A program made the position numbers and the translations under genes. Positions 1,276 through 29,766 of a stretch of DNA of 32,000 bases are shown here, piece by piece (the stretch's first letter is position 1; the number at the start of each line of letters is the position of its first letter). This DNA comes from Candidatus Methylomirabilis limnetica (GTDB lineage: Bacteria; Methylomirabilota; Methylomirabilia; Methylomirabilales; Methylomirabilaceae). Under the pieces are notes generated by a model. The model saw nothing but the letters and a program-made list of their open reading frames with translations, had not been told where the DNA came from and ran no database searches. The DNA is taken from NCBI RefSeq assembly GCF_003044035.1, contig NZ_NVQC01000017.1, positions 1-32,000 on the forward strand. The letters are read 5' to 3'.

Positions 1276-1510
1276 ATTAGACAAGAGATTCGACGAAGGT
1301 GAGGATATCTCCAAACACCTCGATCGGTCCAAGGCCAGAAGGCCTGAGCGGGAGCAGAAAAGGGTAAATGTAGATTTCCCTTTATGGATGATCAACCTGT
1401 TGGATAAAGAATCAAAACGGTTAGGTGTGCCCAGGCAATCCATTATCAAAGTTTGGGTGGCAGAACGTCTTGAAAAAGTAATGGTAACTACTCAGGCAGA
1501 TAGACTGTAG
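1262..1510 (+). CDS. brnA: BrnA-family (CopG/RHH-like) antitoxin
   Basis: MKASELDKRFDEGEDISKHLDRSKARRPEREQKRVNVDFPLWMINLLDKESKRLGVPRQSIIKVWVAERLEK. The ATG at 1262 overlaps the brnT stop (ATGAAGGCGAGTGA). The ORF-track start at 1235 lies inside brnT and is less likely. The last ~9 codons (VTTQADRL*) are read from repeat copy A. Confidence 0.8.
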   Translation: MKASELDKRFDEGEDISKHLDRSKARRPEREQKRVNVDFPLWMINLLDKESKRLGVPRQSIIKVWVAERLEKVMVTTQADRL

Positions 1511-1644
1511 GCTTTTAGACTGTAGGAACACGCCATGCGAGACCATACCAAGCTCAGAGTGTTTGAACTGCCCGGCGAAGTGCGCCTTGATTCGGTCTGT
1601 GCGCAACGGCTAACAGCCTACAGCCTAAACACCTAAGCAGTTCC
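1484..1644 (+). mobile_element. TIR element carrying a four-helix-bundle gene remnant, copy A (degenerate, inverted relative to B-F)
   Basis: It starts GTAACTACTCAGGCAGATAGACTGTAGG and ends CCTACAGCCTAAACACCTAAGCAGTTCC. The interior ATGCGAGACCATACCAAGCTCAGAGTGTTTGAACTG translates as MRDHTKLRVFEL, followed by ...VRLDSVCAQRLTAYSLNT*. No flanking duplication is recognisable. Confidence 0.75.
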
Positions 1645-11743: not shown

Positions 11744-13000
11744 ATGGCTGAGAATGTGCCAAAGATGGTGAATCTGACACGGACCGAGCGACGGGTCCGG
11801 TCTGATTACCAGACAGCTCTTACGGACTGGCACTCTACTGGCCGTCCTCCGAGGGGCCTTTCGAGCTACAAGCTCGAGTTCGGCACGGAACTCCTGATGG
11901 AGCACCCTCCAACCGCCATCGTCGAAAGCGCGACGATTCCCGCCGACCACCCCTTGTTCAAAGCACACGTCGAACGGCCAATAGGGGAAAGTCGCCCTCT
12001 CCAGAGGCAAGCCTTTCACGTAGCAGAGATGGCCACGTCCGGCTCCTTCGTCCCCATCCTCTCAAGTAACGATGTCACCATTTGGGTCTGCAATGGTGAT
12101 TTCGGGGAAGCCGGGAAGTGGCAACCGCCCTCTCGTCATGCGGACTGCGATGAACTCTATTTTGTCCATCGAGCCCACCATCCCCTGAGCCTCATTACCG
12201 ATTTCGGACTGCTCAAGGAAGTTCGGGAGGGCGATTTCGTTTTTCTGCCCCGAGGTACCACCTATTCGTTTCTCTTTACCGGAAGGGTTTCTATCCTCCT
12301 CTACGAAATCCCGAAACGGCTGTTTCGCCCCTACGACTACTGGATGGGGGATCAGCAGCCCTGGCCCTTTTCGCCGGCTGCTCCGATTCCGCCAGAACCG
12401 AAGCCTCTTGCTGGGCTCCATCCGCCGCTCAGCGGCGACGAGGCCACACAGGTTGTCGTCAAAAGACGGCTGGGCGGTTTCACGTTGCTCAAATATGCAG
12501 CGTCGGTCTTCGATGTCGTGGCGTGGGAGGGAGAGGTGTGGCCATTCATCTTGCGCCTCAACGATATAGTTGCGCTGTCCTCACCACACGTTCATCTCGA
12601 TCCGAAGAAGCTCACCGTCTTCGTAAGCGAGGATGAAGGAATGGCATTGCAGGTTTTCCTGCCCCGGTGGATCCACAGCCTGCCGTATCACCATCTCAAC
12701 TGGGTGGATGAGGTTCTCTTCAACCACAAGGGGTACAGCGCGCGGCCCGAGATCACCGACGGCTTCATGACCTTACATCCGGTCGGTCTGGCCCATGGCC
12801 CAGATTTGAAACTCCTGGCCAACATCGCCCGGAAAGAGATACCCAGCCCAAAGGACCTGCATTTCCTGGAAGAGATCGCCGTGATGGTGGAATCCAGGTC
12901 GCCGTTCGTTGTCCTGAAGGATGCGGAGAATGTGGAATTGAAGGGGTACGACCAATCCTGGTACCAGCAGTCGCTTGAGAGTAACTACTCAGGTGTTTAG
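11744..13000 (+). CDS. homogentisate 1,2-dioxygenase-family cupin protein
   Basis: 418 aa. Contains LPYHHLNWVDEVLFNHKGY....GFMTLHPVGLAHGPD, which matches the HGD signature YHRN..E....G.Y......SLHP.G.PHGP. The last 7 codons and the stop are supplied by repeat copy B. Confidence 0.7.
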   Translation: MAENVPKMVNLTRTERRVRSDYQTALTDWHSTGRPPRGLSSYKLEFGTELLMEHPPTAIVESATIPADHPLFKAHVERPIGESRPLQRQAFHVAEMATSGSFVPILSSNDVTIWVCNGDFGEAGKWQPPSRHADCDELYFVHRAHHPLSLITDFGLLKEVREGDFVFLPRGTTYSFLFTGRVSILLYEIPKRLFRPYDYWMGDQQPWPFSPAAPIPPEPKPLAGLHPPLSGDEATQVVVKRRLGGFTLLKYAASVFDVVAWEGEVWPFILRLNDIVALSSPHVHLDPKKLTVFVSEDEGMALQVFLPRWIHSLPYHHLNWVDEVLFNHKGYSARPEITDGFMTLHPVGLAHGPDLKLLANIARKEIPSPKDLHFLEEIAVMVESRSPFVVLKDAENVELKGYDQSWYQQSLESNYSGV

Positions 13001-13144
13001 GCTGAAGGCTGAAGGTTCTAAATTATCTCGCAAGGCACGAATCTAGCCATTCAAGACCTTTTCGGAGTTTTGTATGATCACGCATGACTTACCCCTAAAA
13101 GCCTTCAGCCTTCAGCCTTCAGCCTATCTACCTGAGTTAGTTAC
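12981..13144 (-). mobile_element. TIR element with four-helix-bundle gene remnant, copy B
   Basis: On the plus strand it starts GTAACTACTCAGGTGTTTAGGCTGAAGGCTGAAGG and ends CCTTCAGCCTTCAGCCTATCTACCTGAGTTAGTTAC. The minus-strand interior is ATGCGTGATCATACAAAACTC (MRDHTKL) joined to ...GLEWLDSCLAR*. Flanks are GCTTGAGA / AATTGAGA. Confidence 0.8.
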
Positions 13145-14224: not shown

Positions 14225-14448
14225 GTAACTGCTCAGGTGTTTAGGCTGAAGGCTATAAAATATTATCTCGCAAGGCACGAATCAAGCTATTCAAGACCTT
14301 CTCGGTTTCTACGACCTTTGGTTCAAGCAGAGCTTAATCCTCGTTGGGCAAGAAGCCCAAATGCTTTGACAGATTTAGTTGATAGCGCAGTTACCTCTGA
14401 TTACCCCTAAAAGCCTTCAGCCTTCAGCCTATCTACCTGAGTAGTTAC
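14225..14448 (-). mobile_element. TIR element with four-helix-bundle gene remnant, copy C
   Basis: It starts GTAACTGCTCAGGTGTTTAGGCTGAAGGCT and ends AGCCTTCAGCCTTCAGCCTATCTACCTGAGTAGTTAC. The interior keeps ..LLAQRGL.. and ..EGLE*LDSCLAR* remnants on the minus strand. A perfect 8-bp duplication TCAGGATG sits at 14217-14224 and 14449-14456. Confidence 0.85.
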
Positions 14449-17650: not shown

Positions 17651-19483
17651 TTAGAGGCCGAAGACGTAGAGCGTCCCGCCCTTGGTTGTGGCCATGGGCA
17701 GACCTGACAAGTAGGCGGCATTCACCCCGCCCAATGCGGCGGTTGGATCGTCCGACGGAAGGTCGAGCGACACGGTGGCGCCAAACCACCCGCCAACGCC
17801 GGAGTATACGGCGACATACTGCTTGCCGTCAGGCCCCTTGTAGGTGATCGGATTACCGATGATCCCGGACCCCACCTTGTGCTTCCACAAAAGCTTCCCA
17901 TCTCGGGCATCGACCGCTTTGAACCAGCCGTCCATCGTACCATAGAAGACCACATTGGTAGAGGTCACCACGGGCCCACTCCATGGGGGCTGACTCTCTT
18001 TAATGGCCCACGCCCTTTTCCCTTTGACGACATCCCAGGCAATGAGATCTCCCCACCAGCCCTTGTCTTTACCTTCGTGGCCTTCGTACATCAGAACGGT
18101 GGCGCCCACGTACGGAGCCCCCGCCGTGTACTGAACCTTAACGCCTTCATAGCTCATACACATGTTGTTGACGGACGCGTAGAAGAGGTTCGTCACCGGG
18201 GAGTAGGCAGCAGGCAGGTAGTTCTTACCACCCATCGCGCAAGGGCAGATGTTCTTGGTGTCTTCACCCTGCTTAGTTAACTTGTCAGGGTTTACGATCG
18301 GCCGCCCCGTCTTCAGGTCGATCCCCTTCGCCCAGTTGACATAGACGAACGCATCGGCCCGGAGAAGTGTCCCGTCAGCGCGGTCAAGGGTGTATACAAA
18401 GCCGTTTCTGTCGAAATGAGTCAGAACCTTGCGCTTTTTGCCATCGATCGTCTGCTCGGTCAGGACGGATTCGTCGATCCCATCGTAGTCCCAGTTGTCC
18501 CACGGAGTCATCTGGTATGCCCACTTGGCCACCCCAGTGTCAGGATTGCGGGCCCATATGGTCATCGACCACTTGTTATCGCCGCCTTTCCGAGGGGCGG
18601 GGTTCCAGGTCCCGGGGTTACCGCTGCCGTAGTAGAACAGGTTCAGATCAGGATCGTATGCATAGTAGCCCCAAGTGGTGCCACCGCCCGTTTTCCACTC
18701 CTCGCCAGGCCAGCTCTTGGTCCCCTCGCCAAATCGTCCGTAATGCGGGTTGGCGGCGTTGAAGTCGGAGGCAAGCTTGAGATCCTCATCGGGCCCCACG
18801 CTGCGGGCCTTCCAGACCTGCTTGCCGGTGTTGATGTCGTAGGCCGCCACCCAGCCTCGGACTCCAAACTCACCACCGGCGACGCCGGCAATGTATTTAT
18901 CCTTAATCACCAGGCCGGCGGCGGTATTCGTCTCACCCTTGGAAGGGTCGGCATTCCGAGTCTTCCAGAGCTCCTTACCGGTCTTGGCATCGAGGGCAAT
19001 AACCATTCCATCGAGCGTTTGGTACAGGATCTTGCCGTTCCCATATTGGAGGCCCTTATGCACTAAGTCGCAGCAGGCGACCGGAACCGCCTTTGGATCG
19101 TGCTTGGCCACGTACTTCCACTTGATCGGCGCCCCTTCCTTGGTCAGATCGAGGGCAAAAATATTATGCGAGTTGCCCGTAGAATAGGAGCTATGGGCAT
19201 ACATCGTGTCGCCGACAACCAGCGGGCCTCCCTGTTGGCCGTTGAGTGTCCCCAGCGAGAACGACCACGCGACTTTAAGATTTTTCGCGTTCTCGGGCGT
19301 AATCTGGTTCAGGGTGCTGTAGCGGGTCCCTGCGTAGTCCTTGCTCTGCTGCGCCCATTGGCCATCGTCTTTCTGCAGCTTCAACACCTCGTCGTTGGCG
19401 TAGACCATAGGCGCCGCCACTACGAGACCCCCAGCCAGGATCAGTAGACCCCCGATCAGTGACGTACATCGTTTCACGCTCAT
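17651..19483 (-). CDS. xoxF: PQQ-dependent methanol/ethanol dehydrogenase, XoxF (lanthanide) type
   Basis: 610 aa with a signal peptide. Contains NDEVLKLQKDDGQWAQQSKDYAGTRYS, the vicinal Cys pair VACCD, and WDNWDYDGIDE, whose DYD is the extra Asp characteristic of XoxF (MxaF has DYA). Confidence 0.9.
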   Translation of the reverse strand: MSVKRCTSLIGGLLILAGGLVVAAPMVYANDEVLKLQKDDGQWAQQSKDYAGTRYSTLNQITPENAKNLKVAWSFSLGTLNGQQGGPLVVGDTMYAHSSYSTGNSHNIFALDLTKEGAPIKWKYVAKHDPKAVPVACCDLVHKGLQYGNGKILYQTLDGMVIALDAKTGKELWKTRNADPSKGETNTAAGLVIKDKYIAGVAGGEFGVRGWVAAYDINTGKQVWKARSVGPDEDLKLASDFNAANPHYGRFGEGTKSWPGEEWKTGGGTTWGYYAYDPDLNLFYYGSGNPGTWNPAPRKGGDNKWSMTIWARNPDTGVAKWAYQMTPWDNWDYDGIDESVLTEQTIDGKKRKVLTHFDRNGFVYTLDRADGTLLRADAFVYVNWAKGIDLKTGRPIVNPDKLTKQGEDTKNICPCAMGGKNYLPAAYSPVTNLFYASVNNMCMSYEGVKVQYTAGAPYVGATVLMYEGHEGKDKGWWGDLIAWDVVKGKRAWAIKESQPPWSGPVVTSTNVVFYGTMDGWFKAVDARDGKLLWKHKVGSGIIGNPITYKGPDGKQYVAVYSGVGGWFGATVSLDLPSDDPTAALGGVNAAYLSGLPMATTKGGTLYVFGL

Positions 19484-19682
19484 TGAATACCTCCCTCTTT
19501 ATGCGATCCTGTTGCTTCCCAGGAAATCATATCTCACTTCTCTCTAATGCCCCGATTGCCCCTACTTCACTTACGCCGCCTTTTCAGGAATTGCGATCCA
19601 CGCGTTCATCCAAGCAAAGATGCAGAGCGGCCGCTCTCCTCCTTTCTTTTGCCTAGCCTCTTCACGATTGGGTAAATCACTC

Positions 19683-19864
19683 GTAACTACTCAGGTGTTT
19701 AGGCTGTAGGCTGAAGGCTGTTAGTCGTTGCGCATGGACCGAATCAAGGCGCCCAGAACCTTTTCGGTCTCCATCATGTTCGCGTCGCATTCAGAAAACG
19801 CCTGGTTCATCCGTGCGCGTTCCTGCAGGCTAAAAGCCTACAGCCTATCTACCTAAGTAGTTAC
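19683..19864 (-). mobile_element. TIR element with four-helix-bundle gene remnant, copy D
   Basis: 182 bp: GTAACTACTCAGGTGTTTAGGCTGTAGG...CCTACAGCCTATCTACCTAAGTAGTTAC. The minus-strand interior reads MNQAFSECDANMMETEKVLGALIRSMRND*. A perfect 8-bp duplication AATCACTC sits at 19675-19682 and 19865-19872. Confidence 0.9.
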
Positions 19865-19894
19865 AATCACTCAACGCTCCGTAATGCGGACATC

Positions 19895-22054
19895 TTACCG
19901 GGTGAAAGAAAACACGCTAATAATACCACGTGACCCGTCCTGCAGATATGCGACGACACCCTTTTCTTTAACAGCCGATAGCACAATCAGGTTCTTCCTG
20001 CCGGTACCGTTCAGATCGGCCAAGGCAACGTCACGCACCTTCCCCTCAAGAGGGATCGTCTCCCACCCCCGCGCAAAGGTTCCTTCTTGACGGTCAAACG
20101 CCACAACCCGGCTAGGCAGGGACGACTCGACACGAAAAAGCCCAATCTTTTTCGGATTGGTAAAGGTCAGAAGCTCTGTCTTGGCGTTACCCCACAGGGG
20201 CGAGGTCTCGACAAGGATTCGCCGCGGCAGGATCTCCCGAATTGCGTGCTCTTCAGGAGTAATCAGGCCCGACTTGAGCCCGTCTCTAGCCAGGAGAGCC
20301 CGGTGCGTGGGGATGTGGGAAAAGGCAAGGTGATCGACCTCGCCCAGGTCATCTTTGCCTTCCCATGACGGCTTGCCCTCGCTCCCGTAGGCCTTGACCC
20401 GTTGCTCGCTAATAACAGCAACCTCTGATATCTGATCGCCGGTGGCATTGATCGGCGCAAATTCGTAGAGATTCTTCACCTGGACCGGAAGGATGAGTGG
20501 CTGCCCTTCGACATACCGCTCGCCATTCCAGGACAGTCGGATGATCGGCCCTTCAAAAGCAGTCAGTTCCCCCATCCGCTGACCGACCAGGATAGGCGTC
20601 TCAATACCAGGCCCCATGACCACGCGAAGGAAGTAGCCCAGCTTATCGGCAATTCGGACGAGCTTACTACCTTGAAGTTCCAGGACAAACGAGTGAAGCT
20701 CGTTCCGAGCACCGGACAGGGCCGTGATAACGACCTGGGCATGACTGCGGCCATTAATATTGCCGACATCAACATGCAAGTGGCGAATAGACCGGGGACT
20801 GCCAATCCTGGCAATCGGCGCCAGTCGTTGATTCTGCCACCGATAGACAATCACCTCAGAGGAGGTTATCCCAACGATCTCTGGCCGTTGATCCCCATCC
20901 AGATCTCCCGCTGCCAGTGCAAGAAGCGGATCGGGCAACTCGAATACGACAGACTCTTGCAAACCCTTATTATTATCGGAACGCGCCGGTTCGGCCTCAG
21001 CCACAGTCAGGAATGAAGGGGCCCCGGGCTTTCGCAACGCCTCTTCGGCAACCACACCCTTACGGGAAGAGGCTATCTCTGAAGAGGGACCTTTCATCTG
21101 CTCGGCAGTTCTCGAAGGCTCAGAACTTTGACGCTCCGCGTGGACGAAAGAGGGTCGTGACGCTGCTGAGGGGGCATGCCCTGAGCCAGGTCGGAGGGCC
21201 GGACCAGACGGTGGCGAGGGGGCGGCCACAACCATCGGTCCACGTTCCGCGATCTCGACGCTCGCAACAGTCAACGGCGCTCCGGTAACGACTGACATGA
21301 CCTGCAGATTCAAGAACAGGCCCTGATGACCAGGACTGAGTTTGCCCAAAACGAGGAGCTGAACGTGCGCCTTCTCCGCCAACAGTTTCAGGGTGGAGGG
21401 ATCGCCTAATGATTCCACCCGCGAGGAATGCTCCCCCGCCAGCGCGGCCCTGAGGAGCGGATCCTCGATTACGATAAAGCGGCCGGTCTTGGCTAGCGCA
21501 ATGGCCAGATCTTTCGTGACCGAATGGGCATTCGCTTCCTTGATCCCGCCGGTATTGATGAGTGGAAGGCCAACCAATAGACGGTCTGAACCTACCCGGA
21601 CCAAATCACTGGCCCTGATGGTAGACCCCTCCTCTCTGGAGACAATGGCCGCCTCCGAGAATTTCTCTTTCACATCAACGACTCTGAGGAGGCCCAGCCT
21701 TTTGTCCCGCCTTCCCAAGATCTCGCCAGTCACGGGGTGTTTGACTTCATCTCCTGCCCGATAGACCTGCAGTTCCATCCCCTGGTACACCTTATTGGCC
21801 CCCAGGTCGATCAGGACCCGGTCCCTCTCGACTCCTGTCACTGACCCTTGGACGACTGGAAAGGCTTCAGCGAGTTTAGCGGCAGCCTCCTCAGCAGCTT
21901 GACCAAAGGCCGGCTCCAGAGCGCGAGCTTGAGAGGCAATGATCGGGATAAAAAGGGTAACGACGAGACAAAGGCAAACCAGCCCGCGCCAGACACATGG
22001 AGGAGCAACTCTGACCGTTTTCGTATTCTTCACAAGGTGAGTGAAAACCTTCAT
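19895..22054 (-). CDS. secreted/anchored FG-GAP/VCBS-repeat protein with an N-terminal LpoB/CsgG-like domain and a Pro/Ser/Ala linker
   Basis: The start is taken at MKVFTHLV...LVCLCLVVTLFIPIIASQARA (22054). The ORF-track start at 22264 reads through repeat copy E. Contains GDLDGDQRPEIVG and ADLNGTGRKNLIV (FG-GAP Ca-loop-like) and a low-complexity linker about 100 aa long. Confidence 0.65.
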   Translation of the reverse strand: MKVFTHLVKNTKTVRVAPPCVWRGLVCLCLVVTLFIPIIASQARALEPAFGQAAEEAAAKLAEAFPVVQGSVTGVERDRVLIDLGANKVYQGMELQVYRAGDEVKHPVTGEILGRRDKRLGLLRVVDVKEKFSEAAIVSREEGSTIRASDLVRVGSDRLLVGLPLINTGGIKEANAHSVTKDLAIALAKTGRFIVIEDPLLRAALAGEHSSRVESLGDPSTLKLLAEKAHVQLLVLGKLSPGHQGLFLNLQVMSVVTGAPLTVASVEIAERGPMVVAAPSPPSGPALRPGSGHAPSAASRPSFVHAERQSSEPSRTAEQMKGPSSEIASSRKGVVAEEALRKPGAPSFLTVAEAEPARSDNNKGLQESVVFELPDPLLALAAGDLDGDQRPEIVGITSSEVIVYRWQNQRLAPIARIGSPRSIRHLHVDVGNINGRSHAQVVITALSGARNELHSFVLELQGSKLVRIADKLGYFLRVVMGPGIETPILVGQRMGELTAFEGPIIRLSWNGERYVEGQPLILPVQVKNLYEFAPINATGDQISEVAVISEQRVKAYGSEGKPSWEGKDDLGEVDHLAFSHIPTHRALLARDGLKSGLITPEEHAIREILPRRILVETSPLWGNAKTELLTFTNPKKIGLFRVESSLPSRVVAFDRQEGTFARGWETIPLEGKVRDVALADLNGTGRKNLIVLSAVKEKGVVAYLQDGSRGIISVFSFTR

Positions 22055-22156
22055 GCCATTGAACGCGATCAGCACCGGCTCGATTGTATCGATGAGAAAC
22101 CATGCACGCCTCTCACGCCCAGGAGAGCCAACCCATTCAGAAACGCTGTTTGATGC

Positions 22157-22338
22157 GTAACTACTTAGGTGTTTAGGCTGAAGGCTGAAGGCTGTTAGCC
22201 ATTGCGCATGGACCGAATCAAGGCGCCCAGAACCTTTTCGGTCTCCATCATGTTCGCGTCGCATTCTGAAAACGCCTGGCTCATCCGTGCGCGTTCCTAC
22301 AGTCTAAAAGCCTATAGTCTATCTACCTGAGTAGTTAC
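22157..22338 (-). mobile_element. TIR element with four-helix-bundle gene remnant, copy E
   Basis: 182 bp and about 94% identical to copy D. A perfect 8-bp duplication TTTGATGC sits at 22149-22156 and 22339-22346. Confidence 0.9.
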
Positions 22339-22426
22339 TTTGATGCAACGGCATTTTACACCTCATTCGCGCCAATCTGTCAAGTAATTTTTCTCTCGAA
22401 TATATGCCGTCTTGAGAGGTTGAGCG

Positions 22427-23662
22427 TTACGGGATCTTAGGCATCAGCAGGCGCGGCGGGCTGTCCGCTCGCTTTTCGCCGACCAGTTCCTTACCCACGA
22501 CCTTCCCTCCTGCAAAGCGATACCGGACATGAACCTTGCCATTGTAATCGGTGTCCTCTTCCTGAAGCACCTTTTCACCCGTCTCATTATAGGAGACCCA
22601 GACGTCCGGTCGGCCGTCCCCGTTGGTGTCATACTCTTCTTTGGCAAGGCGACCACTCCCAAAGAAGCGAACTAGGTCATACCGCCCCTCGTATTTGGTA
22701 TCAACCTCCTGCCGTTGAATCTCTTCCTCGCGAAAGAAGGTGACGACATCCATCTTCCCCTGCCGCCTGGTATCCTGCTGTCGCTTGACCGGCTTACCGC
22801 TCTCGTACCAGTCGATCAGATCGAGCCGGCCGGCTCCCTGCGTGTCCTCTTCTCGTCGGAAAAGGATGCCTACCTGGAAAAAGTAGGCGACGTTCGGCCG
22901 GCCTTGACCAAGAGTATCCTCCTCTTGCTTGACGATCTGTCCGTTCTCATAGTAGGCCCAGACGTCAGGTCGCCCGGAACCCTTTCGGTCGGCCTCGCGC
23001 CGGATCAGGCGCTCGTCCTTGTCGTAATACGACCAGCGGTCGATCCGCCCCGATCCTTTCGTATCCTCCTCGCGCCGCACGAGTTTTCCTTCCTGGTAAT
23101 AAGAAAAGAACGTTGGGCGAGCGACTCCCTTCTTATCCTCCTCATCCCTGATGAGCACGCCGGCAGCATCATAATACGACCAGAGGGTGATCTTTCCATC
23201 GCGTTTCACCGATTCCTCGGCCCGAACCGCCTTCCCCTTTTCGTAGAAGATGAATCGATCGACTCGCCCATCGGCATCCAGGTCCTGTTCTGCCTTCATC
23301 GGGATTCCCTGGTGATAACTAATCCGGATATCGAACTTCCCATCGCCGTTGTTATCTTTTTCCGTCCTCTCCACCTGACGATCTGTAGACAGGTGGTGCC
23401 ATGTGTCGGGTTTACCGTCTTTATTCGTGTCTACTGCCTGGAGGATCGGGTGTCCATCCCGGTAGGTGATCCAGGCATCGATACGCCCGGAGCCGGCGCT
23501 ATCAACCTCCTCCCGGATGACCTCCCCATTCTCGTCATAGAAATACTTACTCTTCGGCTCGGCTCCTCCTGCAGGAGGAGCGAAAAAGACGAGAAGGGAA
23601 AGGGCGAGGGGAAAGGACAAGGATATGGAGAACAATCTCGCAATGTGTAAGATAGTCGTCAC
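22427..23662 (-). CDS. secreted tandem-repeat protein, 14 x 24-25 aa units with D-x-[DN]-x-[DG]-G-[RK]-x-D loops
   Basis: GTG start. Signal peptide LFSISLSFPLALSLLVFFAPPAGGA. The repeat units include DTNKDGKPDTWHHL.., DNNGDGKFDIRISY.., DLDADGRVDRFIFY.., DTKGSGRIDRWSYY.. and DTNGDGRPDVWVSY... The gene starts 13 nt after the tonB stop. Confidence 0.75.
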   Translation of the reverse strand: MTTILHIARLFSISLSFPLALSLLVFFAPPAGGAEPKSKYFYDENGEVIREEVDSAGSGRIDAWITYRDGHPILQAVDTNKDGKPDTWHHLSTDRQVERTEKDNNGDGKFDIRISYHQGIPMKAEQDLDADGRVDRFIFYEKGKAVRAEESVKRDGKITLWSYYDAAGVLIRDEEDKKGVARPTFFSYYQEGKLVRREEDTKGSGRIDRWSYYDKDERLIRREADRKGSGRPDVWAYYENGQIVKQEEDTLGQGRPNVAYFFQVGILFRREEDTQGAGRLDLIDWYESGKPVKRQQDTRRQGKMDVVTFFREEEIQRQEVDTKYEGRYDLVRFFGSGRLAKEEYDTNGDGRPDVWVSYNETGEKVLQEEDTDYNGKVHVRYRFAGGKVVGKELVGEKRADSPPRLLMPKIP

Positions 23663-23675
23663 GCCCTATCCCATA

Positions 23676-24698
23676 TCAGTTAAGCGCGAACTTTACCGGA
23701 AGCAGCACCCAGCTTTCCACCGGCTTCCCACCCTTTTTGGCAGGAAGAAACGCCCACCCCTTAACCGAATCTACCGCCTCCCGATCAAGGATCTCATAGC
23801 CCGAGGATCGATCAATAGTAAGTTGCCCCACGCGACCATCCGCCCGAACCAAGACACGCAGGTAGACCGTTCCTTCGTAACCTTTTTCCCGTGCCAAAGG
23901 AGGGTACCTGGGAAGCGGATTGATCCCGTAGTTCGGGGCCGCGTATCCACCTCCAGCAGCTCCACTACCTGTCCGGCCAGATCCTCCGCCTGTACCGCCG
24001 CCCTGGGGAGAACCAACAGTCACTGTCGGTGTCAGTGGCGCGGTCAACGCTGCGTCGAGCCGGCCCGCTCCACCCCGGCTTGCTGAGCCGGAGCCGCCTA
24101 CGCCATCCCCGTCAGGACCGAGCAGAACCGGCCCCGGCGACAAGCTAACTGCTGTAGAGGATCCCGGTGTGCCAACGTCCACTGCGCGTGACCCACTCCC
24201 CGACATACCAACGGCCTTTGGCCCGCCGATCCGCTCATCCAACGTCGTAGGCTCCACCACCTCAGCCGCCCGAGCAGGTGAAGACGCCGCAAGAACAGGA
24301 GACGGAGGCGAAACGCGAGGTTGAGCCATCGCTTTCGAGTTGACAGGAGGAACCGCCTTCCCTGGGGCGGCTGCTTGCCTCGTGCGAGTGCGGTCAGGGT
24401 GTCCCGATGGAGCGGATGGCTCGGAATTCTCACTTCCAATGAGGGTTACGACAAGGGGCCGCGGAGCTGATGGAGCCGTGAGAAGCCCAAAACTGATGAT
24501 AACCCAAGCCAGAATCAGGTGGAAACCGGTGGAACTCAGGAGAAATCGGCCCAACGAAAGCGGTCTGGCCTGCGATCCAACCAGAAACGTCATGACAGGA
24601 TGGATCGCATCGGGGGCCCGGTCAACCTCAGTACGGCCTCCTTGACGTCCAAGCGCGAAACTATCCTTTGGAGACATAAAACAATTATAGCGGATCAT
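23676..24698 (-). CDS. tonB: TonB-family energy transducer
   Basis: C-terminal TonB domain: YPPLAREKGYEGTVYLRVLVRADGRVGQLTIDRSSGYEILDREAVDSVKGWAFLPAKKGGKPV. There is one TM segment (FHLILAWVIISFGLL) and a Gly/Pro/Ser/Ala-rich spacer. The start is uncertain: ATGs lie at 24698, 24677 and 24593, none with a good RBS. The ORF-track start at 24851 lies inside repeat copy F. Confidence 0.8.
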   Translation of the reverse strand: MIRYNCFMSPKDSFALGRQGGRTEVDRAPDAIHPVMTFLVGSQARPLSLGRFLLSSTGFHLILAWVIISFGLLTAPSAPRPLVVTLIGSENSEPSAPSGHPDRTRTRQAAAPGKAVPPVNSKAMAQPRVSPPSPVLAASSPARAAEVVEPTTLDERIGGPKAVGMSGSGSRAVDVGTPGSSTAVSLSPGPVLLGPDGDGVGGSGSASRGGAGRLDAALTAPLTPTVTVGSPQGGGTGGGSGRTGSGAAGGGYAAPNYGINPLPRYPPLAREKGYEGTVYLRVLVRADGRVGQLTIDRSSGYEILDREAVDSVKGWAFLPAKKGGKPVESWVLLPVKFALN

Positions 24699-24743
24699 TA
24701 CGAAGCGAGCGAAGAGTTTTTTCTTACATACGGTCCTGTGATC

Positions 24744-24925
24744 GTAACTCCTCAGGTGTTTAGGCTGTAGACTGAAGGCTGTTAGTCGTTGCGCATGGAC
24801 CGAATCAAGGTGCCCAGAACCTTTTCGGTCTCCATCGTTTTCGCGTCGCATTCAGAAAACGCCTGGCTCATCTGTGCGCGTTCCTACAGTCTAAAAACCT
24901 ACAGTCTATCTACCTGAGTTGTTAC
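24744..24925 (-). mobile_element. TIR element with four-helix-bundle gene remnant, copy F
   Basis: 182 bp. The flanks CTGTGATC (24736-24743) and CTGTAATC (24926-24933) match at 7 of 8 positions. It begins 8 nt after the receptor stop. Confidence 0.9.
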
Positions 24926-24933
24926 CTGTAATC

Positions 24934-27171
24934 TTAGAATCGGTAACTGGCGCCGACCAAGACGTTGATCGGCGGCGCAGGATTCAAAAACCGCTCGATA
25001 GGCTCCCCGGGGACCTTAGCATTTGGGGCGAAGGTCCCAAAGGTCTCATAGCGGTTGTTTGTCAGATTGTTGATCTTTACGAACCCGTTTAACCGCTTCC
25101 AGTGGAGATCGAGGCCGGTACTCAAGATAATATAGTCGTCGAGCTTCGACTGGGTGTTCGCCTCGTCGCCACGCAAGAACTGCGAGCTCACATAGGTCAG
25201 GTCCAGAGAGAGGCTCAGCCATCTATAGAGATGGTAGCGGAGACCGGCATTTACACGATGGTTCGGTATTAAGGGGAGTTGATCCCCCTTGGCCACTTGC
25301 TGAGGGACGCCTGGCGTTCGAGGCGAGCCCAGCTCGATGTTATCCTGGAAGGTTCCGCGGGTGAATGTGTAATTCACGTAGGGCTCCAGAAGGTTTCTGT
25401 AGATCCCGCGCAGGCCGGCCTCCAACCCCTGGCGCCTGGTGTTACCGATGTTCTGGAAGAAGACGGTCAGCTCGGCCGGATCGGAGACAGAGAAGATGTC
25501 ATCGCGCACATCGGTCCGGTAGAGCGCCAGGCTCCCCTCCAGCCAGGGCAAGGGGCGCGCCCGGAAACCCACCTCGTAGTTGTGGGCCCTGACGGGACTA
25601 AGCTTCAAGAAGCCGGTGTCGGGCGCCACACCTGCCTGCAGGCCGACGCATGGCGAATCGGGCTTGCCACAGGTCAGCTCCAGGAAAGCCGGGACTCGCC
25701 ACCCCTGGGAGTATGAAAAATAGAACCCGTAGCTGTCGGAGAGATTGTAGTTGATGCCGGCCCTGGGGTTCACGCGGCTATAGGAGGCCCTCCCCGTCGC
25801 CTTGCCCGGCTCTTCTGGGCTCGAGTCGGTAATATCGTGCCTGACGTAATCAACCCGGAGCGCCCCCGTCAAGAACAGATTGTCACTGGACAGTAGCAGG
25901 CCACGCCCAAGCTCGGCGGTGTCCTGGATGTACGCCCCGACGGTATCCTGCTTGTCGGAGAGAACGGAGGTAAGCTGCTTCTCCGGGCATTCCTCATCCG
26001 GATTCTTCCCCGCGGCGAGCGCCTCCTCTCGGCATTGCTGACGAGACCGATCATTCTGCTCCTCGGAAACCCGGATGTCTACATCGTGACGGGTGTATTC
26101 GGTCCCGATGGTCAGCAGATTCTTGCGCCCCCAGAATCGGCCTTCGTGCGTGAGCTGGAGCGTGCCACCGCCGGAGAAGGTATCATTAAAGAGGCGTGAG
26201 TTCTCGCTGATCAGGCTCGCGTTGAACTGCTCGGTGTCCAGCTTCCTGACGAATCCGTTGAGGGCAAAGGTAAAGCCCCCGCCGAGGCGTTGACTGGCAT
26301 TCAGAGTCCCCATATGGAGATTCGGGTTGAAGAAATCGCCCCCGGTGAAGTTCTGCGTCCGATCGACCTTCAGGACGCTCTCGGGCAACGTGCCTGGTTG
26401 CAGAATCCTATTATTCTGAAACTGGTACGAAAGGGTGATGTCAGTGCCGCCTTGACGGAAACCGAGCTTCCCAAAGGCTTGCGAAAGGCGGCTGTCGGAC
26501 TGAACTCTCCAACCGTCCTCATCGAACTGACTTCCGGCGACGTAGTAGTCGAATGGTCCGGCAGTTCCACTCATGTACCCCCGCCCCTTCCGGCGCCCGA
26601 AGCTGCCACCTGAACCTTCAACGACCATCTCTCGCTCGGCTGTACCCCGCTTCGTAATGATATTCAGGGAACCGGCCAGGGTGTTCCGGCCGAAGATAGC
26701 CGTTGGTCCACGAATCAACTCGATCCGTTCGACATCATCGAGCGGGATGAGGTCGAAATTGATCTCTTCGACGGTCGGCTCGTTGACCCTGACCCCATCC
26801 ACGAACACGCTGATTCCCTGAGGGACGCCAGTGACCGAGGTACCCGAAAAGCCTCTAAAGGAGAGATCGAACTGATAGGCGTTGCCCTGTTGATCGTTCA
26901 GATGGACCCCCGGAAGCTGCTGCATGACGTCCTGGAGGTTCAGCGCACCCGAGCGTTTGATCTCCTCGGCCGTAATAACCTGAACGCTAGCCGGAACTTC
27001 GGCGAGCGAGAGCGGGACCTCTGGAAGGCGGGCCGGCGCAGTCACGAGGATCTCTGGAAGCGGGGTGATCTCCAGAGGCACTCCAGATTCCTGGGCATGC
27101 ACGCCATTGGCCCACCAACTGATCATCAATCCCGCCAGCGCTCCGATCGCCTGAGTCCGAGCTCCCTGCAT
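24934..27171 (-). CDS. TonB-dependent outer-membrane receptor
   Basis: 745 aa with a signal peptide. Plug-domain motifs are VQVITAEEIKRSGALNLQDVMQQLPGV and FDLSFRGF. A beta-barrel follows, ending in the terminal ...GASYRF. Confidence 0.9.
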   Translation of the reverse strand: MQGARTQAIGALAGLMISWWANGVHAQESGVPLEITPLPEILVTAPARLPEVPLSLAEVPASVQVITAEEIKRSGALNLQDVMQQLPGVHLNDQQGNAYQFDLSFRGFSGTSVTGVPQGISVFVDGVRVNEPTVEEINFDLIPLDDVERIELIRGPTAIFGRNTLAGSLNIITKRGTAEREMVVEGSGGSFGRRKGRGYMSGTAGPFDYYVAGSQFDEDGWRVQSDSRLSQAFGKLGFRQGGTDITLSYQFQNNRILQPGTLPESVLKVDRTQNFTGGDFFNPNLHMGTLNASQRLGGGFTFALNGFVRKLDTEQFNASLISENSRLFNDTFSGGGTLQLTHEGRFWGRKNLLTIGTEYTRHDVDIRVSEEQNDRSRQQCREEALAAGKNPDEECPEKQLTSVLSDKQDTVGAYIQDTAELGRGLLLSSDNLFLTGALRVDYVRHDITDSSPEEPGKATGRASYSRVNPRAGINYNLSDSYGFYFSYSQGWRVPAFLELTCGKPDSPCVGLQAGVAPDTGFLKLSPVRAHNYEVGFRARPLPWLEGSLALYRTDVRDDIFSVSDPAELTVFFQNIGNTRRQGLEAGLRGIYRNLLEPYVNYTFTRGTFQDNIELGSPRTPGVPQQVAKGDQLPLIPNHRVNAGLRYHLYRWLSLSLDLTYVSSQFLRGDEANTQSKLDDYIILSTGLDLHWKRLNGFVKINNLTNNRYETFGTFAPNAKVPGEPIERFLNPAPPINVLVGASYRF

Positions 27172-27439: not shown

Positions 27440-27850
27440 TCAGGCGGCGAGAGCTACTTCGAGCGACTGCGTCAATTCGGGCGCGGCGCGCCGGAGCGTC
27501 GCATCTTCCGTGACGAGCTTTACCCCCAGTTCCCGAGCCGCCACGAGGAAACGAGCGTCGTAGACTGACACCTTGTAGGTCATCGCGACAACCAAGGCTT
27601 GATGGTGGCTGACAACGGTCAACCCTGGGCTCAGGAATACCTCGGCCTCATTGAGCCGCGCAAGCGCCTCACCCTCGCTGGTTAGCCCCATACGCGCGTA
27701 GGTCGCCATAACGTTCGCGAACTCTATCAGCGCGAAGGACTCCGTGCGCCAATCCCAATCTTTTTCCAGCAGCCGGCGCGCCGCATGCGTCCAGGCATTC
27801 TCGACCCACAATGAGATCGCGATGTTGGTATCGATCAACACCATCGTCAA
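27440..27850 (-). CDS. vapC: PIN-domain toxin VapC
   Basis: MTMVLIDTNIAISL..., YDARFLVAA and VTED provide the conserved acidic residues of a PIN domain. The gene starts 6 nt after the antitoxin stop. Confidence 0.85.
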   Translation of the reverse strand: MTMVLIDTNIAISLWVENAWTHAARRLLEKDWDWRTESFALIEFANVMATYARMGLTSEGEALARLNEAEVFLSPGLTVVSHHQALVVAMTYKVSVYDARFLVAARELGVKLVTEDATLRRAAPELTQSLEVALAA

Positions 27851-27856
27851 TAACGC

Positions 27857-28090
27857 TCAGTCACGCCCTTCGGCGATGGCGGCTTCGATGTCTTCAATGG
27901 TCGGACGGTCTCCACTCGCCAGCTTCAGCGGCGGTGACAGCTTTGGTGGCTGGCGGGGCGCCGCGAGTACGGACTCGATGAGGCTCACCACCTCTTTGGT
28001 GACGGAGCGATGGTGGCGCTGTGCCTGCGCCTTCAAGCGCACGTGCAGTTTTTCGGGGAAGTTCTTGATCACCAGCGTGCTCATGGACAA
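27857..28090 (-). CDS. vapB: ribbon-helix-helix (Arc/FitA-like) antitoxin VapB
   Basis: 77 aa. The N-terminus MSMSTLVIKNFPEKLHVRLKAQAQRHHRSVTKEVVSLIE has a beta-strand plus two-helix RHH pattern. It sits upstream of the PIN gene. Confidence 0.8.
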   Translation of the reverse strand: MSMSTLVIKNFPEKLHVRLKAQAQRHHRSVTKEVVSLIESVLAAPRQPPKLSPPLKLASGDRPTIEDIEAAIAEGRD

Positions 28091-28099
28091 TCCCTCCAG

Positions 28100-28266
28100 C
28101 TAGTGTCGTGAATCAGAAATATCGAAACATAAAACGGCGTCTTTTTTCGCATGGCGGTGTTGCTCGTCGTTGCCATAGTCCGGGCTATGGCGCCTCCTCG
28201 TGCCTTGCCATGCGAAAAAATCCATTCGTTTTATTCTGTTCCGCTATTTATGATTCACGACACTAG
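28100..28266. repeat. 167-bp long imperfect palindrome (MITE-like or structured RNA)
   Basis: The perfect 16-nt ends are CTAGTGTCGTGAATCA (28100-28115) and TGATTCACGACACTAG (28251-28266). The arms pair imperfectly over about 60 nt, including TTTTTTCGCATGGC/GCCATGCGAAAAAA. The central hairpin is GCCATAG-tccggg-CTATGGC. Confidence 0.65.
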
Positions 28267-28344: not shown

Positions 28345-29766
28345 CTACAAAATGGCCGGGCGGGTAATCCCATGTTTCTGGATGCGATAACGGAGCGCTT
28401 CTCTACCGATGCTCAATTTTCTGGCAGCTTCCGCGACATTGCCGTCCGTCAGGTCCAACGCCTGCTTGATCAATTGTCGCTCAACCTCATCCAAATCGAT
28501 ACCCTGTTCTGGAAACTGTATCTGAAACGTCTCATCGGCGCCGGGTGGGTGATTTCGCCTTTGGCTTGCAACGACAGGGGACGTGGCGTCCATGCTAAGA
28601 GCCGAGGGACCGATCTCTTGCTCATCGCAGACCAAAAGCGCCCGCTCTACCAAGTGGACGAGTTCTCGAACATTGCCAGGCCAGCGGTACGCTCTGAGGG
28701 CTTGGAGGGCGGCCTCTGTGAACCGTCTTACAGGAAGCGAATACTTATGGGTCAGTTGCTTGAGAAAGTGGTTCGCCAGCAAGACCACATCTTCGCCGCG
28801 CTCCCGCAACGGCGGCAGTTCCACGGTGAGGACCTTCAGGCGATAGTAGAGATCTGGTCGGAAGGCGCCGACCTTCACAGCCGCCTCGAGGTCGCGGTTG
28901 GTGGCCGCAATAATACGAACATTGATTTTTCGCTCCCGAAGGCTGCCCAACCGGCGAATCTGCCTTCGCTCGATCGCCTTCAACAGCTTCGCCTGAAGCT
29001 CTGGACTCAGCTCGCCGACCTCGTCCAGAAAGAGCGTCCCGCCGTCGGCCGCCTCGATCAGGCCAGGCTTCGCAGCAGTGGCGCCTGTGAACGCGCCCTT
29101 CTCGTACCCAAACAGCTCCGCTTCTGCGAGATCCTTTGGGATCGACGTACATTCAATCTCGACAAACGGCTGCCCGGCAAGGCTTCCTCGGCGATGGATT
29201 GCCCGTGCCACGAGGTCCTTCCCCGTCCCGGTCTCGCCCAGCAGCAACACCGTCGGCAGCTCGCCCGCAGGCCTGGGTTCGAGGTGAGCGATCCGTCCGA
29301 TCATCTCTATGACCTGCGTCATCCCGGCAGAGACGCCAATGATCTCGCCATGAGCGGCCTGCTGGACCTCCTTGCGTTGGAAGTAAGAGAGGCGTTCTCT
29401 CAGGCGATGCGTCTCCAATGCTTTCTCGATGATAAATGTCAACTCATCGTGATCGATCGGCTTCTGGATGTAGTCGTATGCCCCATCCTTCATCGCGGCC
29501 ACAGCGCTCTCGACGCTGCTGTACGCAGTCATGATGATGACGATGATGCTCCCGTCGAGGCTCAAGATCTTCCTTAGCGCGTCGAGCCCACTCATACCGG
29601 CCAGCTTGATATCCAGCAGGATCAGATCGGGCCGATCCGTCTCGATCGATATCATCCCCTCCTCTGCGCTCGACAGACTTCTGCACTCATGGCCATTTCT
29701 GCTGAGGGTGTGCGCCACGGAGCGAGCAAACACGACCTCGTCATCAATGACCAGTATCTTAGCCAT
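28345..29766 (-). CDS. sigma54-dependent response regulator (NtrC family)
   Basis: Receiver domain MAKILVIDDE...DLILLD. AAA+ domain with GETGTGKD, the GAFTGA loop and ELFLDE-like LFLDEVGEL. C-terminal Fis-type HTH GNVAEAARKLSIGREALRYRIQKHGI. The start at 29766 overlaps the kinase stop by 8 nt. The ORF-track start at 29823 is less likely. Confidence 0.9.
   Translation of the reverse strand: MAKILVIDDEVVFARSVAHTLSRNGHECRSLSSAEEGMISIETDRPDLILLDIKLAGMSGLDALRKILSLDGSIIVIIMTAYSSVESAVAAMKDGAYDYIQKPIDHDELTFIIEKALETHRLRERLSYFQRKEVQQAAHGEIIGVSAGMTQVIEMIGRIAHLEPRPAGELPTVLLLGETGTGKDLVARAIHRRGSLAGQPFVEIECTSIPKDLAEAELFGYEKGAFTGATAAKPGLIEAADGGTLFLDEVGELSPELQAKLLKAIERRQIRRLGSLRERKINVRIIAATNRDLEAAVKVGAFRPDLYYRLKVLTVELPPLRERGEDVVLLANHFLKQLTHKYSLPVRRFTEAALQALRAYRWPGNVRELVHLVERALLVCDEQEIGPSALSMDATSPVVASQRRNHPPGADETFQIQFPEQGIDLDEVERQLIKQALDLTDGNVAEAARKLSIGREALRYRIQKHGITRPAIL

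Follow-up and report, generated by a model that had tools for sequence, protein, structure and literature searches.

Three near-identical repeats, here called D, E and F, occupy consecutive spacers of a minus-strand gene string in Candidatus Methylomirabilis limnetica, which according to Pfam encodes a TonB-dependent receptor, a TonB_C protein (tonB), a protein without Pfam family (p411), an FG-GAP_3 protein and a pyrroloquinoline quinone (PQQ) dehydrogenase (xoxF). [quoted passage not shown] The analysed window comprises the first 32,000 nucleotides (nt) of contig NZ_NVQC01000017.1, and numbers beginning with L (L001, L121 etc.) are labels of the genome stretches with which it was compared. 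An initial annotation of this DNA had proposed that the three repeats form hairpins that cut a polycistronic transcript into separately stable mRNAs or act as insulator, stability or terminator modules. The repeats were found as described, yet their hairpins came about as a by-product when a transposon inserted recently, and they are no design feature of the operon.

A repeat search of the window detected repeats of about 195 nt at 19682-19876, 22156-22350 and 24743-24937, which are 89-92% identical. Trimmed to their inverted-repeat ends, D, E and F have a length of 182 nt each, and the three pairs agree at 171, 169 and 168 of the 182 positions (92-94%), which confirms the near-identity noticed before. 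Each element is enclosed by an 8-bp target-site duplication (TSD):

19683..19864, minus strand: element D, probable 182-nt MITE between the FG-GAP stop codon and xoxF; best-kept hairpin, 14+13 bp with 0 mismatches
22157..22338, minus strand: element E, probable 182-nt MITE in the p411/FG-GAP spacer; stem mismatches, 1 outer and 3 inner
24744..24925, minus strand: element F, probable 182-nt MITE, start 8 nt past the receptor stop codon; 2 uncompensated outer-stem mismatches
19675..19682 and 19865-19872, no strand: TSD of D, AATCACTC, 8/8; once in relatives
22149..22156 and 22339-22346, no strand: TSD of E, TTTGATGC, 8/8; once in relatives
24736..24743, no strand: TSD of F, CTGTGATC, with the second copy CTGTAATC at 24926-24933, 7/8; in relatives GATTACAG once

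All distances to the neighbouring genes that had been quoted earlier were correct. F begins 8 nt past the receptor stop codon (24934-24936), and these 8 nt are the second copy of its target duplication. E lies between the stop codon of p411 (22427) and the conserved ATG of the FG-GAP gene (22054), while D begins 30 nt past the FG-GAP stop codon (19895-19897) and ends 199 nt short of the xoxF ATG (19483). In all three copies the end proximal to the open reading frame (ORF), AGATAG, is upstream in gene direction, and thus they are indeed oriented like the genes. The count of three, in contrast, holds for D, E and F but not for the window, which contains six copies; the additional copies A, B and C belong to other deletion subtypes.

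The terminal inverted repeats (TIRs) of about 30 nt are composed of the terminus GTAACTACTCAGGT (14 nt) and, after it, heptamer repeats of the type GGCTGAA/GGCTGTA, and the 30-nt arms are 87% complementary. With up to three mismatches the terminus matches the window 12 times, compared to 1.05 expected matches, and none of 100 shuffled sequences reached this number. The only ORF within D, E and F is a relic of 29 codons, and a transposase gene is absent from the 182 nt. Small size, terminal inverted repeats, target duplications with empty counterparts in relatives and dispersed copies are all characteristic of MITEs.

Comparing filled with empty sites is the classic way to prove transposition. 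When metagenomes were scanned with p411, 13 orthologous loci were obtained (70-88% p411 identity), mostly on partial Methylomirabilis-like contigs, in which the order receptor-tonB-p411-FG-GAP-xoxF is the same wherever it is covered. Not a single element was found in any spacer that these contigs cover. Junction alignments revealed that the D site is empty in L124-L127, L133 and L134, the E site in L122, L125, L126, L133 and L134, and the F site in L125, L126, L127 and L134. At all three junctions the target 8-mer is present exactly once per relative (4-6 relatives aligned per site), in sense direction as GATTACAG, which follows the receptor stop codon directly, as GCATCAAA upstream of the FG-GAP gene and as GAGCGATT after it. 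Sites that are filled here and empty in relatives therefore identify D, E and F as three separate lineage-specific insertions, and, because the sites are empty in all orthologous clusters that cover them, the gene string works without the elements. It is almost certain that D, E and F are insertions of a non-autonomous transposon that descends from a cassette with a four-helix-bundle gene.

This cassette was recognized in a wider family of elements. One genome per prokaryotic species was scanned with a degenerate 24-nt end pattern, and at least 120 genome stretches, belonging to several phyla, contain it. The matches listed stem from Methylomirabilis, Nitrospira and other Nitrospirota, many Desulfobacterota, Nitrospinota, anammox Planctomycetota, Elusimicrobia, Desantisbacteria plus a few more taxa; some of the taxon labels are those of metagenome bins and possibly wrong, and several matches lie on contigs of 0.2-4.6 Mb. 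Matches in a Methanoperedens metagenome-assembled genome (MAG; L073) and a Bacteroidales MAG (L002) may stem from erroneous binning or else reflect true transfer across domains or phyla. The matches listed include 79 paired elements of 86-483 nt, mostly 160-180 nt, about half of which have perfect 8/8 duplications; all are intergenic and none is inside a long ORF. Scanned viral contigs contained no match to the end pattern, and there is thus no evidence for a phage vector.

In full-length relatives of 445-478 nt the same ends enclose an intact ORF of 118 amino acids (aa), for example in L097 (453 nt, TSD TATTTTAA), L138 (445 nt, TSD AAAGGAGA) and L150 (453 nt, TSD AAGCAGAT), all three with 8/8 duplications. 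A blastn search of plasmids with the 453-nt cassette gave no match. The encoded protein matches PF05635 23S_rRNA_IVP (E 8e-34, 116 bits, cut-off 33.8) and TIGR02436 'four helix bundle protein' (E 2e-34), and weakly also Avd, the accessory protein of diversity-generating retroelements (DGRs). Of the solved structures, that of the pentameric XCC0516 is closest to the encoded protein, and a sequence search of the PDB retrieved only two uncharacterised pentameric bundles, 2GSC and 2RLD. Among seven intact copies (21 pairs) the ratio of nonsynonymous to synonymous substitution rates (dN/dS) is 0.07-0.50, with most pairs at about 0.15-0.2, and these low values indicate that the protein is under purifying selection. 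A database search yielded 7,919 matches at E <= 1e-10. The best 120 of them have 115-120 aa (nearly all 118), are 89-99% identical and reside mostly on short contigs, which is the signature of an abundant repeat.

Alignment A1 identified D, E and F as internal deletions of the cassette, which retain about 50 nt of its 5' end and its last 29 codons with a new ATG. Deletion subtypes of 182 nt, 161-168 nt and 224-246 nt each occur in multiple copies; these subtypes thus multiplied although they had no intact ORF in cis. Intact cassettes are often found in tight operon spacers (uvrD/gatC, aconitase/icd, speE/acetyltransferase, next to MMPL, ABC/glycosyltransferase), and their orientation along the host genes would fit a parent cassette that lives off read-through transcription of the host. 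One of them (L138, 2450-2910) went precisely into the ribosome-binding site of gatC. Its target duplication AAAGGAGA (8 bp) re-forms the site downstream of the element, and gatC thereby retains its Shine-Dalgarno sequence. In otherwise full-length cassettes of L069 (6230-6310), L108 and L118 the middle of the ORF is exchanged for a short secondary palindrome made up of the same heptamers, AGGTGAGTAGGCTGAAGACTGAAGAC...CTTCAGCCTTCGGTCTTCAGCCTAATGACCT, which suggests a recurrent internal rearrangement. L067 (4242-4331), L090 (5680-5917), L010 and L034 combine the same 14-nt terminus with the heptamer GGTTCAA/GGTTCAC instead of GGCTGAA, and hence terminus and heptamer arrays vary independently. 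The literature searched, outside of which are most subscription journals, contained no description of this end family, of PF05635 cassettes with insertion sequence (IS) ends and target duplications, or of MITEs derived from them, and a prior description is possible. MITEs in operon spacers and their cleavage by RNase III are known already.

The ends of the elements point to the enzyme that might move them. IS66 elements have GTAAGCG at their start and generate repeats of 8 bp (PMC11946415). ISDge4 of Deinococcus geothermalis, a member of the single-ORF ISBst12 group of IS66, was shown to transpose and has the TIRs GTGACTACTCAGCA and GTAACTGCTCAGCA as well as an 8-bp direct repeat (PMC12898284). 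An IS66-like element of Geobacillus kaustophilus pHTA426 has the ends GTATCTATTCAGCC and GTAACTATTCAGCC with GACGAGTT on both sides (8/8), and it encodes a 485-aa protein with the PF03050 domain DDE_Tnp_IS66 (E 2e-64). Of its first 12 positions, the window terminus GTAACTACTCAGGT has 11-12 in common with the ends of these two elements, and the duplications are equally long. Thus, the elements have both the end (GTAA...; here GTAACTAYTCAG) and the 8-bp target duplication of the ISBst12 group. Because of the shared termini and duplication length, mobilization in trans by a transposase of this group is the best supported mechanism, and an ISBst12-type transposase probably moves the elements. According to Pfam, the window contains no ORF for an IS66-type transposase in or near them, and they are therefore only non-autonomous derivatives of the group, not members of it. 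A DDE transposase of the ISBst12 group, IS66 family, would act on them in trans, and copies would survive only in spacers if selection removed insertions into genes. The 453-nt parent could then be called a 'mobile insertion cassette', with IS ends around a passenger gene, and the window copies would be its MITEs.

Several observations weigh against this interpretation. A transposase is missing from the window, and no transposase recurs near the 120 loci, in which an all-versus-all comparison of ORFs of at least 200 aa yielded housekeeping families only. Likewise, tblastn found no homolog of the Geobacillus ISBst12-group transposase in the compared sequences. The assignment to ISBst12 rests on 11-12 terminal bases, the length of the duplication and three reference ends. 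Copy A has no recognisable target duplication. The common gene orientation of D, E and F has a chance of 1 in 4 to 8, and a selective filter is possible. Finally, in 9 of 10 independent loci the intact-ORF cassettes share the direction of the gene downstream, from which it follows that orientation matters for the parent cassette. A full-length IS, defined by paired ends 600-7000 nt apart with matching TSD, was not found in the 120 loci; long end pairs in L044 and L047 turned out to be separate MITEs that bracket ordinary genes.

It had been suggested that the hairpins are modules for processing, stability or insulation that split a receptor-to-xoxF polycistron. The proposal has a sound structural basis. 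The predicted fold of the D sense RNA has an outer stem of 14 bp and an inner stem of 13 bp, which are separated by a 3x3 internal loop and close an interior of about 120 nt. This is near the 14+10 bp and the loop of about 110 nt estimated earlier. The minimum free energy is -78.6 kcal/mol (z = -7.4), and the terminal stems of all three copies persist when 60-nt flanks are included. All three are in gene orientation, no clear terminator separates the genes, the parent family includes intervening sequences (IVSs) of rRNA that RNase III excises, and its intact members are strongly co-oriented with host genes. However, the antisense strand folds equally well (-82.7 kcal/mol, z = -8.0), as expected of an inverted repeat in DNA, and there is no sign of selection on the RNA of one strand. 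The outer 14 bp are the IS-type ends, and the inner 13-bp stem is made of the heptamers GGCTGTA/GGCTGAA/GGCTGTT. In E, the outer stem contains a C.A mismatch and three positions of the inner stem are unpaired, and F has two uncompensated outer mismatches. Copies differ at 5-7 of 60 arm nt versus 6-7 of 122 interior nt. Thus, the stems of E and F decay and compensating changes are absent, and divergence is at least as rapid in the arms as in the interior. Nor is there an orientation rule, since B and C are antisense and, of 25 deletion derivatives between co-directional genes, 15 have the same and 10 the opposite orientation, which is not significant. A promoter-like site before E and a TATAAT before tonB suggest separate transcription units, and the elements are absent from the spacers of all 13 orthologous loci that cover them. 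A selected processing or insulator role at this locus is therefore not supported, and it is unlikely that the hairpins evolved as such modules. Ordinary host repeats resembling repetitive extragenic palindromic sequences (REPs) or bacterial interspersed mosaic elements (BIMEs), or intrinsic terminators, are another explanation, in favor of which the elements are intergenic, palindromic and multi-copy. Yet 182 nt with a coding relic are unlike REPs of 20-40 nt, and the 8-bp duplications as well as the filled and empty sites contradict this explanation, which is extremely improbable. The elements are not intrinsic terminators because no U-tract follows the stems (the following sequences are GAGTGATT, GCATCAAA and GATCACAG); the terminator scan was blank at the element ends, and at gathering threshold the whole window matched no Rfam family and no rRNA. 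The proposed terminator function was thus not borne out.

Two further explanations concern the ORF. The 29-codon ORF, M[NS]QAFSECDA..ETEKVLGALIRSMRND, might itself be the functional unit, i.e. a gene for a small protein, as its frame is uninterrupted in D, E and F as well as in two copies from a Methylomirabilis MAG (L001, L043), and it has an AGGA about 12 nt upstream of the ATG. However, its codons correspond one by one to the final 29 residues of the 118-aa protein, it is thus one helix of the bundle, about five of seven substitutions among the ORFs of D, E and F are non-synonymous, and A, B and C have other stubs, other frames or stops. A functional small protein is therefore highly improbable. 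The alternative that a mechanism other than that of ISBst12/IS66 moves the elements, e.g. the four-helix-bundle protein acting in trans with the heptamer arrays and a host enzyme, has several points in its favor. No copy among the compared loci has a cognate transposase nearby, the ORF is under purifying selection within a mobile cassette, and heptamer arrays flank members that lack GTAAC termini (cyanobacterial plasmids, the Azospirillum IVS). A role of the ORF in mobility was proposed for IVSs by Ralph and McClelland, as cited in PMC4990558. On the other hand, demonstrated elements of the ISBst12 group agree with the terminal 12 nt and with the duplication of 8 bp, and deletion subtypes without intact ORF have still multiplied. 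Moreover, a 118-aa helical bundle is not known to have a catalytic motif for strand transfer. We regard such a mechanism as improbable, and transposition in trans by an ISBst12-group enzyme remains the preferred explanation.

Recent insertions may nevertheless affect transcripts. If transcribed, the arms would form a quasi-continuous duplex of about 30 bp, which is the type of RNase III substrate present in rRNA IVSs and Correia elements. RNase III excises IVSs from 23S rRNA (PMC4990558) and cuts Correia MITEs within mRNAs at their TIRs (PMC10969869). By analogy to these cases, the chances that RNase III cuts the hairpins of D, E and F in vivo are about even. In transcripts, F would belong to the receptor 3' region and E to the FG-GAP leader, with D upstream of xoxF, and cutting may split or destabilise read-through transcripts in this strain, as a consequence of the insertions and not as their purpose. 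Strains with and without the insertions are a natural set for measuring the processing of MITE hairpins by RNase III.

The initial comparison with 23S rRNA IVSs was apt in a way that goes beyond the fold. As the full-length relatives encode an ORF of the Pfam family 23S_rRNA_IVP, the analogy stems from a shared ancestry of the inner module. D, E and F are not rRNA IVSs themselves, as they lie between protein genes and outside of 23S rRNA genes and contain only the last 29 codons of the PF05635/TIGR02436 ORF. A tblastn search of plasmids identified the family protein, unannotated, on Azospirillum lipoferum AZO_p2. The ORF is located within a 23S rRNA gene at helix 45 (the gene has 3,199 nt versus 2,925 nt of the model), between 36-nt inverted repeats (L135 3418-3453 and 3851-3886) of the heptamers GAGGACG GATGACA GAGGACG GAGGACA. 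Copies on cyanobacterial plasmids, one of them between cas6 and cas4, are bracketed by inverted arrays of the heptamers AGCGATT/AGCTGTT/AGCTTTT (L136 1263-1500 and 1860-1965; L137 1349-1378 and 1862-1899). Inverted arrays of lineage-specific 7-nt repeats, which are similar to the heptamers GGCTGAA/GGCTGTA in the window, may thus be a family-wide feature of these four-helix-bundle genes. The IVS ORF reads with the rRNA, as the ORFs of intact cassettes read with host genes. ORF-bearing IVSs have 428-444 nt and a 28-bp terminal stem that is cut by RNase III, their origin was still called unclear in the 2016 paper on the Coxiella IVS, and the old hypotheses cited there include a 'remnant of transposition' and a 'mobile element whose ORF aids mobility' (PMC4990558). 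We tentatively consider that an undescribed cross-phylum cassette exists, which combines ISBst12-type ends, inverted heptamer arrays and the IVS gene, inserts in sense into operons with duplication of 8 bp and spawns MITEs, and of which the window elements would be the degenerate tip. If so, the filled and empty sites would be the first evidence at the level of insertions that the IVS protein family spreads as DNA transposons, ORF-bearing rRNA IVSs could be the survivors in those few rRNA loops that tolerate a hairpin excisable by RNase III, and RNase III-dependent excision from mRNAs would be predicted. The family would link what is commonly kept apart, namely MITEs, the ISBst12 branch of IS66 and the abundant, function-less proteins named 'four helix bundle / S23 ribosomal / 23S rRNA IVS', and it offers a testable route for the origin of ORF-bearing rRNA IVSs.

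The elements share features with several known systems. Correia/NEMIS elements of Neisseria and ERIC elements of Yersinia are also small, transposase-less and intergenic, have TIRs and are co-transcribed with their neighbors. Correia elements duplicate a TA target and have 26-bp TIRs. The elements described here, in contrast, duplicate 8 bp of variable sequence, have unrelated ends, originate from a gene-carrying cassette and are found in several phyla, and thus they are not Correia elements. ORF-bearing 23S IVSs of Leptospira, Coxiella and Azospirillum resemble the parent cassette in the PF05635/TIGR02436 ORF, a size of about 430-480 nt, inverted repeats that form a long stem and 7-nt repeats in the arms. 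They differ in their location in rRNA helix 45, and the Azospirillum copy has no visible target duplication and no GTAAC terminus, whereas the window copies reside in mRNA spacers, are cut down to 182 nt and have ISBst12-type ends and 8-bp duplications. The ISBst12 elements ISDge4 and that of pHTA426 share the termini GTAACT(A/G)(C/T)TCAG and the 8-bp duplication, but they are autonomous, have 1.5-1.7 kb and encode a DDE_Tnp_IS66 protein of 449-485 aa in place of heptamer arrays and a four-helix-bundle relic. Another parallel, and the one that describes the 453-nt parent best, is the mobile insertion cassette MIC231 of Bacillus cereus, for which mobilization in trans has reportedly been shown by experiment in the work of Chen et al. 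of 1999 and De Palmenaer et al. of 2004. Like the 453-nt parent, MIC231 has IS ends around a passenger gene and lacks a transposase, and it is moved in trans, as is proposed for the parent. However, it belongs to IS231/IS4 and not to IS66/ISBst12, it has another passenger, and trans-movement of the 453-nt cassette is suggested by its ends. The MITE Chunjie of Geobacter uraniireducens, A+T-rich and 178-235 bp in size, has 9-bp direct repeats and TIRs of 21 bp, and it resembles the present elements in size, in intergenic and intra-operon sites in a deltaproteobacterium and in its very stable RNA fold (PMC3184786). As described, its 9-bp repeats and 21-bp TIRs argue against membership in the same family. 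Integron attC sites, REPs and terminators are also a misfit with two-ended inverted repeats, 8-bp duplications and stems that lack a U-tract.

The gene string that received the insertions consists of the following genes, to which a promoter-like motif is added:

24934-27171, minus strand: TonB-dependent receptor (Pfam)
23676-24851 (ORF call), minus strand: TonB_C protein, tonB (Pfam)
22427-23662, minus strand: p411, no Pfam family
19895-22264 (ORF call), minus strand: FG-GAP protein (Pfam FG-GAP_3)
17651-19483, minus strand: PQQ methanol/ethanol dehydrogenase, xoxF (Pfam)
22355..22383, minus strand: promoter-like motif TTGACA-N17-TGTAAA, not part of E; -35 kept in all aligned relatives, -10 is TATAAA in L126

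The dehydrogenase has the same sequence as a protein assigned to Candidatus Methylomirabilis at NCBI. E starts 16 nt downstream of the conserved -10-like hexamer and is thus probably situated within the FG-GAP 5' leader, at about +10. About 110 nt of this leader (region 22055-22383, minus strand) are conserved at the nucleotide level in relatives, and they have no match in Rfam. Upstream of tonB a TATAAT is conserved among the aligned relatives. Because of these two motifs the five genes are probably not one obligatory polycistron, and the premise of a single polycistron is doubtful as judged from the promoter-like sequences. The earlier impression that no intrinsic terminator is visible was right, as the terminator scan of the three spacers found nothing but one weak match inside the FG-GAP leader.

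The longest ORFs of two genes start inside elements, that of tonB (391 aa, ATG 24851) in F and that of the FG-GAP gene (789 aa, ATG 22264) in E, and the public assembly L121 has the same start calls. The element-free relatives and an in-frame stop in L122 make ATG 24677 (MSPKDSF...) and ATG 22054 (MKVFTHLV...) the likely true starts, and they indicate that the N-terminal extensions at 24677-24851 and 22054-22264 are annotation artefacts due to the insertions. Starts of tonB and the FG-GAP gene within the elements should therefore no longer be called by annotators. At this locus the elements are recent parasites, outside the conserved regulation of the cluster for the lanthanide-type methanol dehydrogenase (xoxF).

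The remaining copies in the window and the coding relic of D are:

1484..1644, plus strand: copy A, 161 nt, opposite chromosomal orientation; N-terminal stub MRDHTKLRVFELPGE; between convergent genes
12981..13144, minus strand: copy B, 164 nt; TSD 6/8; N-terminal stub MRDHTKLR and a decayed C-terminal stub
14225..14448, minus strand: copy C, 224 nt; TSD TCAGGATG, 8/8; about 45 C-terminal codons, interrupted by a stop
19721..19810, minus strand: 29-codon stub in D, MNQAFSECDANMMETEKVLGALIRSMRND followed by a stop codon; remnant of the final 29 codons of the four-helix-bundle ORF

With respect to their neighboring genes, which are on the plus strand, B and C are antisense. Stubs equivalent to that of D are present in E (22195-22284) and F (24782-24871). 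Six-frame translation showed that the interiors descend from a single gene, that A and B share ATG CGN GAY CAT ACN AAR CTC (MRDHTKL) with differences at synonymous positions only, and that C, D, E and F share ...ETEKVL..LIR..R.. before the stop codon. The differences at synonymous sites in the stubs suggest a protein-coding ancestry.

The ENA contig ERZ4201063 NODE_41 (L121), which matches the window, ends inside element B at about window position 13042. Many family members in MAGs are also found at contig ends, and the repeat breaks assemblies of short reads. Small addiction modules adjoin MITE insertions in the window. A CopG-like antitoxin ORF (1235-1510) runs with its 3' end into element A, and a gene for a PIN-domain toxin with a ribbon-helix-helix (RHH) antitoxin partner is located at 27440-28103 (Pfam and L121 annotation). 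Between this RHH/PIN pair and a sigma-54 response regulator gene (28345-29823) lies a single-copy 33-nt inverted repeat (28100-28266), TGTCGTGAATCA...TGATTCACGACA, with arms 101 nt apart and an inner perfect pair of 14 nt. It is unrelated to the MITE family and may be a pair of regulator binding sites.

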